DNA of 64,000 bases from Porphyridium purpureum (GCA_008690995.1 VRMN01000001.1:2604001-2668000); one strand, 5' to 3'; counted from the first letter of the stretch, positions 2,798 through 10,037 are shown. Numbers and translations: made by a program. Notes: generated by a model not told the origin, from the letters alone.

Positions 2798-3115
2798 CTA
2801 CATGTAGTGAGCTGTATAATCTGGCTCCCCGTGGTCGGAGAAAATACTGTTTGTCGTTTCAGTATCTGATCTCGACGTGCCCTCAAAGGCTGGTCTTGCG
2901 TCAGGCTGATGCTTTGTCCACCTGTTCTGCTTTCTTTGAAATAATGTGTTTGTCTTCCACCGCGTCGCGTCCCGACGCACGAGAGGTTTGTGCTCTTCGT
3001 TGCTCGGACTCCAGGCAGGGCGACGATTTCCCGCTGAACTCTGATACCCCATGGGCACGATTGGAATAGGTGCGGAGAACTGCATGACCATTGGCGTAAC
3101 CGGCTTGGAGCTCAT
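2798..3115 (-). CDS. Small hypothetical protein (105 aa)
   Basis: ATG-initiated ORF convergent with USP7. TATA-like GTATAAGAGG ~160 nt upstream (plus strand ~3271-3280). No recognisable domain. Confidence 0.4.
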   Translation of the reverse strand: MSSKPVTPMVMQFSAPIPIVPMGYQSSAGNRRPAWSPSNEEHKPLVRRDATRWKTNTLFQRKQNRWTKHQPDARPAFEGTSRSDTETTNSIFSDHGEPDYTAHYM

Positions 3116-3448
3116 GTTTGCGACTGGATTCTGCGGATAAAGTGTCGAATACTTCGGAACCGATACAGAGTCAACACTTCAGATTTCTTTTGCTTTGCCT
3201 GTTTTTGCGCCGGTTGAATCTGCTTTGCCGGCGCTGCAGTCGGTCAGGTGTGGCCCGCGTCCCCCTCGCGCCTCTTATACATCGCACGCATCGCCACATC
3301 GGCGCGCGTCTTACATTTGATGTCAGCGCCCATGCGCAAGTCCATGGCGCGCAAGTGTAAGCTCATGTAAGGAGTTCGCTGTACTACTTACAAATCACTG
3401 TACTTCTTTTTGGGGGAAACGTTGGGGGTACAGTGCGTCCAAACAAAC

Positions 3449-4245
3449 CTTGGAATTTCTCCCTTTCTGCTTTGTAACCGAATCAACAAAACCGGATCGC
3501 TTCACCGATAACAGGAACTGGAAACCGCCACACCCCGGAAACTGACAAACCGACGACGAACCGACACACCGAAACGAACGGAAGGACAAGCAGGACAATC
3601 AGAGAAAAGTGGCTAGAAAGGAAGAGAGGACAGAAAATTCAACTTATAGGGGACTACGAGAGGGAGTGGACCGGTCTTGACAAGTGAAGGGTGATGGAAG
3701 GTACGTTTAAACCCCAGCTGCCTTTTTAAAAACACTCCAGACCGATATCCGCTCGCACAACACGCTAGCGTGCCTCTCCCGCAAATCCAACCCAAGTCTT
3801 CCAACGACTGCCTCAATCCAACTAACCAATTCTCTTTTTATTCTATTTGCCCTTACCTCTTCTTCTACCTTGACCTGGAAATTCCTGGGAACCAGCTTGC
3901 CCCTTCGTCCTTTTATACCCTTCGTCCTTGCTCTTTCCAGCAAGGACGGGAGAACAAATTTCTCCAACAGGACGAATTTCCACCACAGGTTTTGATTCGT
4001 TCCACAACTCGCAACCACAGCCGGCCACGTATCCGGAAAATGGCCGGGAAGGCGCGTCAAGAACGAATCCAGAAGCTTCGGCCGGCCTTTGACCTTTGCA
4101 CAAGGTCACACAAAACGACAATGACAAACATTTCGCAGGTCCGAGATCATCACGCTTCTCGAACAATCTTTCATCATAGAACTTTCTAGGGTTTTGTACT
4201 CAAAACCCTACGGCGTCTCTCGGGGCGGAACCCTAAAATTCCACG
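3449..4245 (-). repeat. 3' LTR
   Basis: Direct repeat of 8412-9207. Core TGGAATT...AATTCCA spans 3451-4243. The only difference I saw is one extra A in the TTTTTAAAAAC run near 3730. Confidence 0.95.
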
Positions 4246-7200
4246 CTCCTCCTTCCGGTCTGAGGGACGCGTAACTTCTCCCAGCACTTAATGTGGCCCT
4301 CCGGAAATAAGGCCTTGGTCATTAAGTCCGCCACATTTTCGTCCGTCTTCACAAATGCCAGTTTCACAAGTTTCTGCTTTTCGCACACCTGATGCAACCA
4401 GGCCAAATCTGTTGCTCGGGTTATCGCCATATGATGCAACTTTGGCGAGTACCCCATCTCTATTGCTCGCATCACAGCTTGATTATCACACATCAAAATC
4501 ACCGAGAACTCTCCGTCACGTATACTTCGCAAGAAAGACAATGCAGGAAACAACGAGAGTTGCACAGTTTCCTCTAGGGCGGCCAGCTCCGACTCTGAAG
4601 TCGACGAGCTCACGAAACGCTGCTTTCTTGAAGACCAATCCACTAGGTACTTGTAATCTCCAGCAACTAAGTACGTTGCTCTTCCAGAAGTCGACACACG
4701 ACTCTCTGGACAACCAGCAAAGTCAGCATCCGTGTATCCAAGAATGTTCACCCCTCTGATGCCTTCCTTGAGATTCCCCAACACGTGATACTCCAATGCT
4801 TCCCGAGGTGTTTTCAAATACTGCACGACTCGTACGAGCAGCCTTTCTGCTGCCACATTCCACTTGTCAACGTACCGGGCAATCATACCGACTGCATACG
4901 CAATATCAGGTCGAACCGTTCTGGCGAGCCACACAGCCTCCCGACGTGTTCTCTTACTTTCAAAGTCTTCCAGATGACTTGATAATTCAGAACTTCCTCG
5001 CCATCTAGCTTCTCAGATGGTGACTTCACGGCACGCAATACGCGTCTAATATCCTGCTCGAATTCCCGAATGACCACATCTTGATACTCTTGATTCGCCA
5101 AACTCACGTTCCCATTTTTGAGGGAAATGCTCGTCCCCAGGAATCTCAAGGATCCCCCTTCCGTCAATAGTTCTGGTGCTTTTTCTATGAGAAACTCTTG
5201 TTTCAATTCTTCGATGATTCCTGGGCGTTCCTCCTCTCGACAGGCTAATAGACCATCATCCACGTACAGAGCCAACAACGCAACTGACGAACTTGCAGCA
5301 TTTCTCCGGACGTACACATTCTTTTCACCATGCACGAGCTTCCACTGGAACTTTTGCAATCTCCTCCGAGCATCTTGTGAGAAATCCGAGCCGCTCCTGG
5401 GCAAGCCATACAGCGCCTTTCTCAGCCTGACTACTGTGTCTTTTGAATCACAAATTTCACGCGGTAAATATGCAAACGTAGGTGGCCCAGACAGGTCCGC
5501 ATGGAGGTATGCCGAGCTGATGTCGAAGCTAACAATCTGAAGGCCCAGAATTGCAGCCACAGCTATTATCATTCGGATAGCTGACAAACCAGCAGGCGTC
5601 TCATAATCAAAAATGTCATTCGTCGCAGCTCCATCGGACCCCCATATCCTGTTTCCCCCGGCCACCAAGCGGCACTTCACCTTGCGAAATTCTTCCGGCA
5701 TCTCAGCAAATTTCAGATCGAAAATGAAATGTGTGCGTACGAAACGAGCACCAGGTTGCCTCCGGGCCTCCTCCAGCGTCAAGGGACTCTCATCCCATAC
5801 CCCAAATTTCAGCATGGATTTGACTTCTTTTTCCATCGCGGCTCGTCCTTGCTCAGACGCCAACGCCGCTCCAGTTTTCATCAAAGTCGTCAAGTTCAAC
5901 TGTGGGATCGTCACTGGACCACCCGTGCCTGCTGCCCGTTCCTCGTCAACCACTCTCACTTTCAATGCCTCGATCTCTTTCTCAAGCTCCGCTTCTCGAG
6001 CTCTGAGAGCATCGATACGACGATCCAAGTCCTGCACCGCTTCAACCGCGGATGGTTCGTCCACTTCTGGCAACTCTTCCTGCTGGCTCAGGCTCACCAT
6101 CTCTCGTTCGATTCCCTTTAAAGGGAACTCATGGGGAAATGCCTTAAAATCCTGAGTGCGAATTACTTTTGGGGTCTCACTCGTCCAGTCATCCCGAGGA
6201 AGCACCAAAATTGCCATCGGATGCTCTCCAACGCCGACGAGAATGCCAACTTTTCCTCGCGGTGCATACTTATTGTCAGGCTGATCATCTTCGTAGACCA
6301 CCTTGCACCCGAATGGCAAACCAAGATTTTTCGGCGACCATTTTTCACCATGTCGTAATTCAAACGGCGTCTTTCCAGACTTCCTGCCCACGTGCAGTCT
6401 ATTCGTCATGAACGCAAAATGCTGCGCGGCGTGCATGAACCAACGCTTCCCGAGCCCGGCCTGCACAAGATTCGCACGGATTCCCTGATTCAGCGTGTGG
6501 TGAAACCGCTCCTGTTCAGCATGACTGTTTGGCCTGTACGGAATCCCCACCTCGTGCTTTATGAGGTGTTCACGCACCAGTCTCCCCACATCTCCCTTGA
6601 ACTCATTCCCATCATCCGTTCGCAAAACCTTCGGCCATCCTCTCCCGGCTTGCACACTTTTCCAAGCGTCCGCAACCGCCGTGTGAGTTTTCGCACGTAG
6701 CCCCGCCAATGTCACCCATCCTGTGGCTCTGTCGATATGCGTCAAAATAAATTTTGAACCATCTACCGACTTCACATTTCGCCCAGGCTCCACCAAGTCA
6801 ATTCCGACTTCATCATTGAATGACAATGCACTGACATCTTTCTCCAGCCTTCGGGCCGGGCGTCGCTTTATCTTCGCCACGACACACGTCTCACAGTCTC
6901 TTTGCATAGGCATGTGAGTCAACTCGTGTTCCGAAGCAGCCACGCTCTGATTTTTCCCGTCAAGCTCGGGAACCACTTCTTCAACATTTTCCAACGTGCA
7001 TATTTCCTTCCCCTCGGGCCTCGTTTCCATCAGTCCCTTCTGCCAATCAATCTTAGGATTCACCATCTTGAGCCATTTCCACCCTAAGATGGCATCCATA
7101 CGAATGGGACCGATATAAAACTCGACGTTCCCTATCCAGAAACCGAGGTCCACCGCAAGCACAATGGGGCCGTGCACCTTCATTCTCTGTCCTCCCGCAA

Positions 7201-7438
7201 GCTCGACCATGCATTCATCGCAACTGGACTTTACGCTTGCGTCCAAGAATCGGGACCCCAGGAAATTATGCGACGCTCCACTGTCAATCAAGAAGTCGAT
7301 TTTTGAACCACTCACTTTCCCATGTTTGTAGAAGAGCCTTGACCTCGCACCCTCGTGCGCAACACCTTCCACAACACCCATTACAGGAGGCTCCATTCCC
7401 CTCGAGATCTCCTCCTGTCTTGGCTCTCGAGGTCTTAG
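4233..7438 (-). CDS. pol: Pol polyprotein PR-IN-RT-RNaseH (Ty1/copia order), broken by a 1-nt frameshift near 4935
   Basis: Protease LIDSGASHNF / DAILG. Integrase HELTH..C..C, GIDL, RTDDGNEF, QERF, GKTPFE, PFGC. RVT_2-type RT KCRLVAGG, FDISSAYL, LRKALYGLPRSG, LYVDD. The ORF at 4233-4934 carries RPDIAYAV, YTDADFAG, SSTSESE, CDNQA and NVADLMTK (copia RNase H). Confidence 0.92.
4246..4256 (-). promoter_or_regulatory. Polypurine tract
   Basis: GGAAGGAGGAG lies immediately before the 3' LTR. Confidence 0.85.
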
Positions 7439-7444
7439 TTTTCC
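7383..7444 (-). promoter_or_regulatory. -1 programmed ribosomal frameshift signal (slippery heptamer plus H-type pseudoknot)
   Basis: G GAA AAC (7444-7438) directly precedes the gag TAA, and pol is open in the -1 frame. Stem 1 is CCTCGAGA/TCTCGAGG and stem 2 is ACAGGAGG/CCTCCTGT. Confidence 0.8.
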
Positions 7445-8382
7445 GGCTCTGGCGGACCACCTGCCAAGCGCTCCTTCAATTTAGGGCATTTGGGCTTAAT
7501 GTGTCCACGTTCTCCACAATGGTAACACTTCACTTTGGTCTTGCCAGACTTCCGCTTGTCCATGGCTCCCAAATCCATTGGTGCGCTACCAGAATGCGAC
7601 GAGAACGCCCTGCTATGAGTCGATGACGAGTTCTTGATCACTTGACTCATATCTCCTCCGAACTTTGCAACCTGCTCAGCTGCCAACGCAACTTTCAGTG
7701 ATTCTTCCAAGGTCCTTGTGTCCTGACGGGCCACCTCAATACGCAGTTTCTCCTTCAAGCCCAGCGTGAAGATGGTGTTCAGTTCTGCATCTGTCACATC
7801 TTCAACTGATAACGCTGTCATCCTGAGATTCTGCTCAAATTCTGCGACCGTCATTTTCCCTTGCTTCAACTGATACAGATTGGTGCGCGCTGTCAAATGC
7901 GCCTGCGGCGGCTCAAACGCTGTGCGCACGAAGTTTGCGAACGCATCCCATCCGGCCTCTGCAAGGCCCTTTCTCTGCTCCTCCGGACGAGCTGCCCAAA
8001 GCAGCGCTGCGTCCCTCTCGAAAAAGCGACTTGCAACAATCACTTTCTGCGAGTCCAAAGCATCTGCGGGCATGCAGATATCCAGGTCGCTCTTCATTCG
8101 CATCAGCCATTCATTGACAACGAGCTTGTCACGCTGACCATCAAACTTTCTCAAACTGCGCCCAATTAACGCGGCCATGGCACGATCGTTGTCACCAGAC
8201 CCAGACGCCACGGTCTGCTGGCGCAACAAAACATGCATCATTTCATGGAGGTTACGATTCGCTTCCTGCACTTGTGCCATCATCATCTCCTGTCCCGCAA
8301 TGCGCGCATGCAGCTGATTAGCTGCCTCAATCCATGCCGCATTCTCCTGCGGGACATTCATTTCCATTTCATGGCTTTCCAT
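7435..8382 (-). CDS. gag: Retrotransposon Gag (Ty3/gypsy-like capsid plus CCHC zinc knuckle)
   Basis: KFDG...WL, LYQLKQGKMTVAEF, F..GLKEKLR.EV, APMDLG, and CYHCGERGHIKPKC. First ATG is at 8382. Confidence 0.9.
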   Translation of the reverse strand: MESHEMEMNVPQENAAWIEAANQLHARIAGQEMMMAQVQEANRNLHEMMHVLLRQQTVASGSGDNDRAMAALIGRSLRKFDGQRDKLVVNEWLMRMKSDLDICMPADALDSQKVIVASRFFERDAALLWAARPEEQRKGLAEAGWDAFANFVRTAFEPPQAHLTARTNLYQLKQGKMTVAEFEQNLRMTALSVEDVTDAELNTIFTLGLKEKLRIEVARQDTRTLEESLKVALAAEQVAKFGGDMSQVIKNSSSTHSRAFSSHSGSAPMDLGAMDKRKSGKTKVKCYHCGERGHIKPKCPKLKERLAGGPPEPEN

Positions 8383-8393
8383 TTTCTCCAAAC

Positions 8394-8411
8394 AACCGGG
8401 CGATGATACCA
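8394..8411 (-). promoter_or_regulatory. Primer binding site (tRNA-iMet type)
   Basis: TGGTATCATCGCCCGGTT lies immediately after the 5' LTR and resembles the canonical iMet PBS TGGTATCAGAGC. Confidence 0.85.
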
Positions 8412-9207
8412 CTTGGAATTTCTCCCTTTCTGCTTTGTAACCGAATCAACAAAACCGGATCGCTTCACCGATAACAGGAACTGGAAACCGCCACACCCCG
8501 GAAACTGACAAACCGACGACGAACCGACACACCGAAACGAACGGAAGGACAAGCAGGACAATCAGAGAAAAGTGGCTAGAAAGGAAGAGAGGACAGAAAA
8601 TTCAACTTATAGGGGACTACGAGAGGGAGTGGACCGGTCTTGACAAGTGAAGGGTGATGGAAGGTACGTTTAAACCCCAGCTGCCTTTTTAAAACACTCC
8701 AGACCGATATCCGCTCGCACAACACGCTAGCGTGCCTCTCCCGCAAATCCAACCCAAGTCTTCCAACGACTGCCTCAATCCAACTAACCAATTCTCTTTT
8801 TATTCTATTTGCCCTTACCTCTTCTTCTACCTTGACCTGGAAATTCCTGGGAACCAGCTTGCCCCTTCGTCCTTTTATACCCTTCGTCCTTGCTCTTTCC
8901 AGCAAGGACGGGAGAACAAATTTCTCCAACAGGACGAATTTCCACCACAGGTTTTGATTCGTTCCACAACTCGCAACCACAGCCGGCCACGTATCCGGAA
9001 AATGGCCGGGAAGGCGCGTCAAGAACGAATCCAGAAGCTTCGGCCGGCCTTTGACCTTTGCACAAGGTCACACAAAACGACAATGACAAACATTTCGCAG
9101 GTCCGAGATCATCACGCTTCTCGAACAATCTTTCATCATAGAACTTTCTAGGGTTTTGTACTCAAAACCCTACGGCGTCTCTCGGGGCGGAACCCTAAAA
9201 TTCCACG
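8412..9207 (-). repeat. 5' LTR
   Basis: Direct repeat of 3449-4245. Core spans 8414-9205. Minus-strand TATAAAA at ~8873-8879. Confidence 0.95.
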
Positions 9208-10037
9208 CAAACACCAAGCGATTCCGTGAAGGTGGGCTAAGCGCGTAGAAACGGCGCCTATGGCTGCGCGTTTCCATGTTGCGAAACGCGGATTTGCGAC
9301 GTGTGCTGAGAATGTCTCCGCGAAATGGGCTCCGGGAATGGGTCATCCACAGGCAGCCATGAGGCACCGATTTGTGTTCAGAGCGCAAGCCGTCGTGCTT
9401 TCGTCTGCGATTTGAGATTTCCTATGCAAGTGATGCCGATTTGGAGCGGATGCCGAAACGGCCAAAGACAAATGTCGCGCTGGACAGAATCACGTACGGC
9501 GTAGACGCAGCGCATATAAAGCGCGACCACACCGAAAAGTGCCAGAAGTGCCAGACGGAAGGAGCAAGGAAGACGCAAGAGTGAAGACATACACGGCGAC
9601 CAAGCCAAAGCCAGAAAAGGAGAGGAACGTGCTTTCATCATGTGGGACTTTGCAGGATTGTTCGGGGATGAGAAGCGTCGAGCTCTAGACGCAACAGAGT
9701 CGCAGAGGATGCTCTCTGCGAACAAGGGATTGTTTCAAAGTCAAGACGCAAAGGCTGTAGGGAATCAGCAAGGCTTGAGGCCGGCCCGTGGGATGAGAAG
9801 GTCATTCTTCAATCGTTCGCAGCGCAAGACGGGTACCGCCGTGAGAATGAACTCCCTGTCTTCTCCGCGGCTTCAGCAGTACGATCGCACATCGAGCCTC
9901 GGGCATGTGGTATGCCTAGAGCGTTGTCTGTCCGTAGAGGAACATCGCAGTTCGCTCTTACAGCTGAAGCAGTCAGGGTTAATTTGAAGCTATGCTCTAT
10001 GTAGATAAAGTCCAATCTGAATTTCATTTCCTTAATA

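Follow-up and report, generated by a model that had tools for sequence, protein, structure and literature searches.

The terminal CA exposed by 3' processing is near universal in retroviruses and long terminal repeat (LTR) elements. The locus described here raises the question of whether a family of such elements can spread while keeping the bases that are normally clipped. It lies in 64,000 nucleotides of Porphyridium purpureum DNA (GCA_008690995.1 VRMN01000001.1:2604001-2668000), the whole of which is called the window. An LTR retrotransposon occupies positions 3449-9207 on the minus strand, with edges flush with its polypurine tract (PPT) and primer binding site (PBS), and reads 5'-CG TGG...CCA AG-3' on the element strand. 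No further LTR copy or related pol was found elsewhere in the window. The features that define its ends, including the target site duplication (TSD) and the retained bases at the U3 and U5 (unique 3' and 5') ends, are as follows.

3444-3448, no strand: left copy of the TSD, CAAAC; one copy is present in the empty allele
3449-4245, minus strand: 3' LTR, 797 bp, retained two-nucleotide ends included
3449-3450, minus strand: dinucleotide kept outside CA at the U5 end (AG on the element strand); the LTR-PBS spacer at 8412-8413 has the same two bases
4244-4245, minus strand: PPT-LTR spacer CG, also coding; the pol frame crosses it and stops at 4233-4235
4246-4256, minus strand: PPT GGAAGGAGGAG; exact cleavage site predicted
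8400-8411, minus strand: PBS TGGTATCATCGC, presumably initiator-Met-like
8412-9207, minus strand: 5' LTR, 796 bp, retained two-nucleotide ends included
9206-9207, minus strand: retained U3-end dinucleotide CG outside TG; followed by G in another insertion
9208-9212, no strand: right copy of the TSD, CAAAC

On the element strand the order is TSD, CG TGGAATTT...AAATTCCA AG, PBS TGGTATCATCGC ... PPT GGAAGGAGGAG, CG TGGAATTT...AAATTCCA AG, TSD. We take the PBS to resemble the complement of an initiator-Met tRNA; no tRNA gene was found in the 64-kb window. On the strand presented, the left boundary passes from CAAAC (3444-3448) through CT (3449-3450) to TGG, which starts at 3451, and the right boundary from a CA ending at 9205 through CG (9206-9207) to CAAAC (9208-9212). 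At the inner boundaries, a CA ending at 4243 is followed by CG (4244-4245) and the PPT, and the PBS, ending at 8411, is followed by CT (8412-8413) and by TGG from 8414. Outside TG as well as outside CA, the two LTRs have two bases in common. A sequence-only reading of the locus had already placed these features, and all of its coordinates proved correct.

Analysis of end pairs (3445-3454 on the left, 9201-9211 on the right) revealed no repeat of 3 bp or more for the TG..CA ends (3451/9205), a 5-bp repeat for the pair 3449/9207 and a 4-bp repeat for 3449/9208. The perfect 5-bp duplication CAAAC appears only when the extra dinucleotides are included, as the sequence-only reading had proposed. 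With the ends fixed, five bases would match by chance in 0.13% of cases; over 25 offset pairs the figure is 2.4%. A TSD of 4-6 bp (at one site), a PBS, a PPT and two LTRs are present as in a canonical LTR element, and TG..CA termini adjoining the TSD are absent. The two element ends form a 10-bp inverted repeat in which nine of the ten bases match.

A search of public sequencing runs listed 24 runs, of which 20, from eight studies, contain the stretch. Five were compared with the window, all as assembled contigs and with the DNA or RNA origin of each run guessed. The comparison covered two regions, 3000-4500 on the 3' LTR side, where 20 of 33 loose contig ends were listed, and 8385-9235 on the 5' LTR side, where all loose ends were listed. 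An empty allele was found by letters in three of four runs (X2, X17 and X13), in which a contig follows the left flank up to 3448 and then passes directly to window 9213-9242; in X19 the match of one contig ends at 3448 and the contig runs on. The empty site holds a single CAAAC and neither CT nor CG, so these bases belong to the element; an empty site already containing them, which would have spoken against the sequence-only reading, was not seen. The filled junction was also found in X13 and X17, and hence the insertion is polymorphic within cultures. Because the window may itself derive from one of these runs, the filled junction does not count as independent support. The two LTRs are identical but for one base in a run of A (3728); all four runs compared at 8385-9235 have the extra A, so the difference may be an assembly error. 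Since the only LTR difference is contradicted by all four runs, the insertion is very young.

Comparison of the edges of other copies revealed the same ends, and retention of the spacer bases is a family trait. A collapsed LTR contig covers exactly 3449-4245 and 8412-9207 in X2 and X17, which supports shared edges because copies starting at TG would split the contig. At the U5 edge, the 8385-9235 comparison gave ten contigs with foreign flanks, nine of which match through CT: two at 8409 (the same flank in two runs), two at 8410, one at 8411 and four at 8412, one of these four being the junction of the insertion studied here. The tenth comes from a diverged copy that aligns from 8418 and still starts with CT in register. 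Breaks at 8413 or 8414 are absent from all ten. In the same comparison, five foreign-flank contigs at the U3 edge break at 9207, four of them representing one insertion with the flank GGTGT and one representing another, and none breaks at 9205 or 9206. The loose ends listed for 3000-4500 add further edges, at 3445-3448 in six contigs of X19 and at 4247 in one flank of X17. Other copies ending at TG..CA, which the sequence-only reading had named as grounds for giving it up, were absent from all loose ends at 8385-9235 and from the 20 of 33 listed at 3000-4500.

These contigs also bear on the idea that this is a single aberrant insertion, or a product of assembly or chance, in a family whose normal copies end in TG..CA. 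The left flank is repetitive, with CAAAC present twice, and a match of five letters over nearby offsets has the 2.4% chance given above. We regard this explanation as highly improbable, because the empty allele and the filled junction both occur in public contigs and none of the 15 foreign-flank contigs at 8385-9235 breaks at TG or CA.

A 4-bp TSD, AAAC, with the end at 9208 had been offered as an alternative. In another insertion GGTGT directly follows CG in all five runs compared, so the family end is CG and not CGC; the 4-bp version is not the family rule and may apply at this one site. A second pair of left and right flanks could not be closed from the loose ends; when merged flanks were decoded by hand, none formed a 5-bp pair, and a loose compatibility over 4 bp in X6 was set aside as too ambiguous.

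Other features of the flanks were recorded. Four of the six X19 flanks at 3445-3448 match this site's AAC or AAAC beside the LTR, possibly reflecting target preference or sampling bias. The flanks at 8409-8411 partly match the PBS-side CCA, CA or A and are possibly integrated remnants of tRNA ends, with chance or ascertainment equally able to account for them. In the flank at 8409, a TTCCACG resembling an LTR end lies 24 bases upstream. A different LTR family with the same PPT-CG-TGGA junction accounts for the loose ends at 4240 (X2, X17 and X19); only its PPT junction is visible.

How, then, could such ends arise? In the textbook scheme, the two edges of the linear complementary DNA (cDNA) are set by the PPT and the PBS, and the bases beyond CA are cut off by integrase (PMC2829016, PMC5408687; here and below, papers are cited for excerpts of their text). 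The integrated DNA here equals the whole predicted cDNA from PPT edge to PBS edge, and blunt joining is for this reason the simplest reading. We consider it probable that the integrase of this family joins blunt cDNA without 3' processing, via a 3'-terminal G. Priming by tRNA and PPT would place the ends of the linear cDNA exactly at AG and CG, and the 10-bp inverted end would be the binding site of integrase. The terminal G (..CCAAG and ..CCACG) would then supply the 3'-OH for an attack on the target staggered by 5 bp. TG..CA, now two bases further in, would be a subterminal recognition motif or the relic of a processing ancestor. Ty1 provides a precedent for blunt-end joining (PMC8487063). 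Integration without 3' processing, as proposed from the sequence alone, thus stands as the best reading; the retention on which it was built holds family-wide, and joining without processing is the likely enzymology, which we infer from the ends.

Several points weigh against this reading. A closed TSD pair exists at this site only, and those X17 flanks that are visible form no pair; the TSD length therefore rests on one site, no other insertion's flanks having paired. Contigs conceal flanks that share edge letters, and library chimeras may be present among the X19 flanks, all from a single run. The pol of this copy is broken by a frameshift near 4934, between reverse transcriptase (RT) and RNase H (RH). 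Ty1, the closest precedent, requires terminal CA (PMC8487063, PMC2939329), so a G end would presumably not be accepted there. Finally, the claim rests on integrated copies, in which processing would leave no trace if the cDNA were longer than predicted. A junction of LTR end to LTR end, as in two-LTR circles, was not seen in the 8385-9235 comparison, and this carries no weight.

The last of these points leads to processing at a shifted site, in which one or two bases left by the primers would extend the cDNA past AG and CG and be clipped off by integrase after the G, with new terminal motifs as in errantiviruses and Troyka. In retroviruses the last base of the tRNA can be retained and processing can be asymmetric, and Ty1 is said, from the title of a 1998 report by Mules, to have 'untidy ends'. 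Shifted processing would yield an identical integrated sequence. It needs extra bases at both ends, though at the U5 end the TGG of the PBS already follows directly, and it offers no reason for the position of CA, precisely two bases in from either end. We hold it to be unlikely.

Integrase-independent insertion, by recombination or end joining of unprocessed cDNA, touches a separate set of observations. In X2 the depth of the LTR contig (116.6) approximates the internal depth (90) plus that of the outer flank (24.5-30.3) and not twice the internal depth, and the gene models P0006 and P0154 chain two to three blocks of integrase (IN), RT and RH. Together these hint at tandem copies sharing LTRs or at one-LTR circles, contig depth being a weak measure. 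Such hints resemble the integrase-independent pathway of Tf1 (PMC11042837), and the route may account for tandem copies. It does not account for a clean 5-bp duplication that cost the empty site no bases, for base-precise edges at many unrelated flanks or for the intact D,D-35-E of the integrase, and as the source of these insertions it is very improbable. Element contigs in X19 are about 50-120 times deeper than the host flank contig, which may indicate strong expression or abundant free cDNA in a run whose type is guessed.

The sequence-only reading had explained the ends by a chimeric origin, with gypsy-style cDNA ends joined by a non-processing copia-type integrase. The coding features that bear on this are listed below (ORF, open reading frame).

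4233-5012, minus strand: ORF with the end of RT and RNase H, past the frame break near 4934; 193/194 identical to P0001
4883-7480, minus strand: pol ORF with protease, integrase and RT (copia order, integrase before RT); RVT_2 E 9.6e-19
6161-6943, minus strand: integrase with a short HHCC zinc finger and intact D,D-35-E, counted on the translation
7010-7393, minus strand: aspartic protease, Ty3/ASPRV1-like; best PDB match retroviral-like aspartic protease 1, E 0.005
7435-8445, minus strand: gag ORF, ATG at 8382; overlaps pol at 7435-7480 in the -1 frame

Integrase lies upstream of RT in the order protease-IN-RT-RH, as in Ty1/copia (Pseudoviridae), and RT is of the RVT_2 type with a match above the cut-off; the RT-RH-IN order and RVT_1-type RT of Ty3/gypsy (Metaviridae) are absent. 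Asp_protease_2 (E 1.9e-4) and SH3_retrovirus (E 0.021) fell below the cut-off in pol. In gag, Retrotrans_gag (E 2.4e-9) and Ty3_capsid (E 1.5e-8) are above the cut-off, zf-CCHC is matched as well, and the Ty3-type capsid and protease have Pfam and motif support. Retrotran_gag_2 and Pol_BBD gave no match in the profile search of the element ORFs, and in place of the single ORF with copia-type gag and protease there are two overlapping ORFs. As a counter-signal, the best PDB sequence match of gag is the Drosophila copia capsid (E 2.6e-4); the Foldseek fold search of gag, with a model of pLDDT (predicted local distance difference test) 61, gave no match at E <= 0.001.

The integrase frame is intact, aligns with retroviral catalytic cores and belongs to a divergent clade that includes environmental proteins; RT likewise falls in a divergent clade of a tree of 66 sequences (FastTree, midpoint root) that was built without named reference sequences. 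In the integrase loop ahead of the catalytic E, the usual PQQNG motif is altered. Many relatives also depart from that motif, and the deviation could not be linked to the choice of ends.

A chimeric layout, with gypsy-leaning gag and protease and copia IN and RT, is likely, and it is old. The same layout occurs in four further Porphyridium proteins (P0002, P0007, P0010 and P0019) among 25 scanned. The Porphyridium families with gypsy-like gag and protease are only about 30-45% identical in integrase; since such distant families share it, the domain swap is old, and the present data do not tie it to these LTR ends. P0002, P0007, P0010, P0016 and P0019 together represent a Porphyridium radiation with Ty3-like gag and/or protease and copia IN and RT.

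It is conceivable that the LTR ends arrived with the gypsy gag and protease and that the copia integrase was unable to process them, an account of origin only and compatible with blunt joining. The gypsy lean of gag and protease beside copia IN and RT speaks for it, as do two integrase relatives (P0027 and P0032) with copia-type protease motifs, judged by eye, and the PPT-CG-TGGA junction of the sister family. Copia elements themselves carry and process such spacers (PMC2829016), the layout is old and common to distant families, the gag has its best PDB sequence match in a copia capsid and the U3 end is encoded inside the copia-type RNase H tail. We consider this origin doubtful. Of the claim made from the sequence alone, the mixed affiliation of the proteins was upheld and its link to the LTR ends is weak. 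Nor are the spacers gypsy-style, as copia elements ordinarily have such a dinucleotide and lose it to integrase, and a copia-type integrase is not non-processing in general, Sirevirus spacers being removed (PMC2829016).

The family has spread recently, since at least 17 near-identical pol gene models exist: of 202 proteins, 17 show a match to this pol of at least 95% across 150 residues or more. P0001, a P. purpureum protein, is 98% identical and its cluster has 16 members. Among the 17, 14 read through the region near 4934, one has the same break, one ends there and one is without the region; the frameshift may be a mutation or an assembly error. The metagenome search for DNA of relatives gave only three matches, chance matches of 20-26 bases; viral contigs gave no relatives (nine motif matches, none with a pol match), prokaryote genomes gave none, and plasmids gave two 24% matches only.

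Among known systems, a 1997 report by Feuerbach is said, from its title, to describe 'retrovirus-like end processing' in Tnt1. Tnt1 and Sireviruses are copia elements with a dinucleotide spacer between PPT or PBS and TG..CA, like the present element. They differ in that the spacer is removed before integration (for Tnt1, judging by that title); in Sireviruses the AT/TG dinucleotides are removed by integrase (PMC2829016). Ty1 of S. cerevisiae (Pseudoviridae) shares the absence of 3' processing, blunt cDNA, a 5-bp TSD and copia-type IN and RT (PMC8487063, PMC2939329), but it has TG..CA ends and requires terminal CA, whereas the element here would join via G with TG..CA two bases inside. Troyka (Kojima 2025, PMC12440569) is alike in family-wide non-TG..CA termini, a 3'-terminal G and verification against empty sites. 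Unlike the element here, with CGTGG..CCAAG ends, a 5-bp TSD and copia RT in place of the CG..CG ends and 3-bp TSD that define Troyka, it has CGCCA..TGGCG ends and forms a separate animal lineage near gypsy. PBS, primer, tRNA and processing do not occur as terms in PMC12440569. Drosophila errantiviruses (gypsy, ZAM and Idefix) also have non-canonical ends, AGT..AnT, with processing left unsettled; they differ in their gypsy-type pol and their motif, and the excerpts of PMC5408687 report no inner TG..CA. Plant non-TGCA copia elements (Tos17, TARE1, AtRE1, TGTT/AACA) share altered terminal dinucleotides but carry substitutions within the terminal motif and no extension outside an intact TG..CA. 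The LTR_retriever survey found the first T to be invariant (10.1101/137141), with AACA an exception (PMC5659011), and a shrimp gypsy consensus has CT..AA ends (PMC3587641). The GalEa clade, reported in Porphyridium cruentum (CoPorcru1/2), has a PBS, as quoted in PMC3587641, that differs from the one here.

Hence non-TG..CA ends (Troyka, errantiviruses) and a non-processing integrase (Ty1) are each known already, and their combination was not found reported in the texts consulted. An intact TG..CA two bases inside integrated ends was likewise not found described in the literature searched, mostly open-access and partly in excerpt. A natural, actively spreading family that keeps normally clipped bases would offer a direct test of the roles of processing and CA by a simple oligonucleotide assay. 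Tools that require TG..CA beside the TSD would miss or mis-trim such elements, whose integrated copies would preserve the cDNA ends in their raw form. On evenly balanced grounds, the element may represent a copia-type integrase lineage that gave up 3' processing along with its dependence on a terminal CA and joins raw ends via G, with the old TG..CA kept two bases inside; this lineage may span the whole Porphyridium radiation of gypsy-gag/copia-pol elements, and ragged ends with left-over tRNA or PPT bases may integrate unchanged.

Other features of the coding region are minor. The U3 end is also protein-coding, since the PPT, the CG spacer and TGGAATT all lie within the pol frame, whose stop is inside the 3' LTR (4233-4256). 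A candidate slippery site, G GAA AAC, lies just ahead of the gag stop in the -1 overlap of gag and pol, and a hairpin is predicted downstream of it (no shuffle control). P0002 and P0011 have a Myb-like domain between IN and RT.

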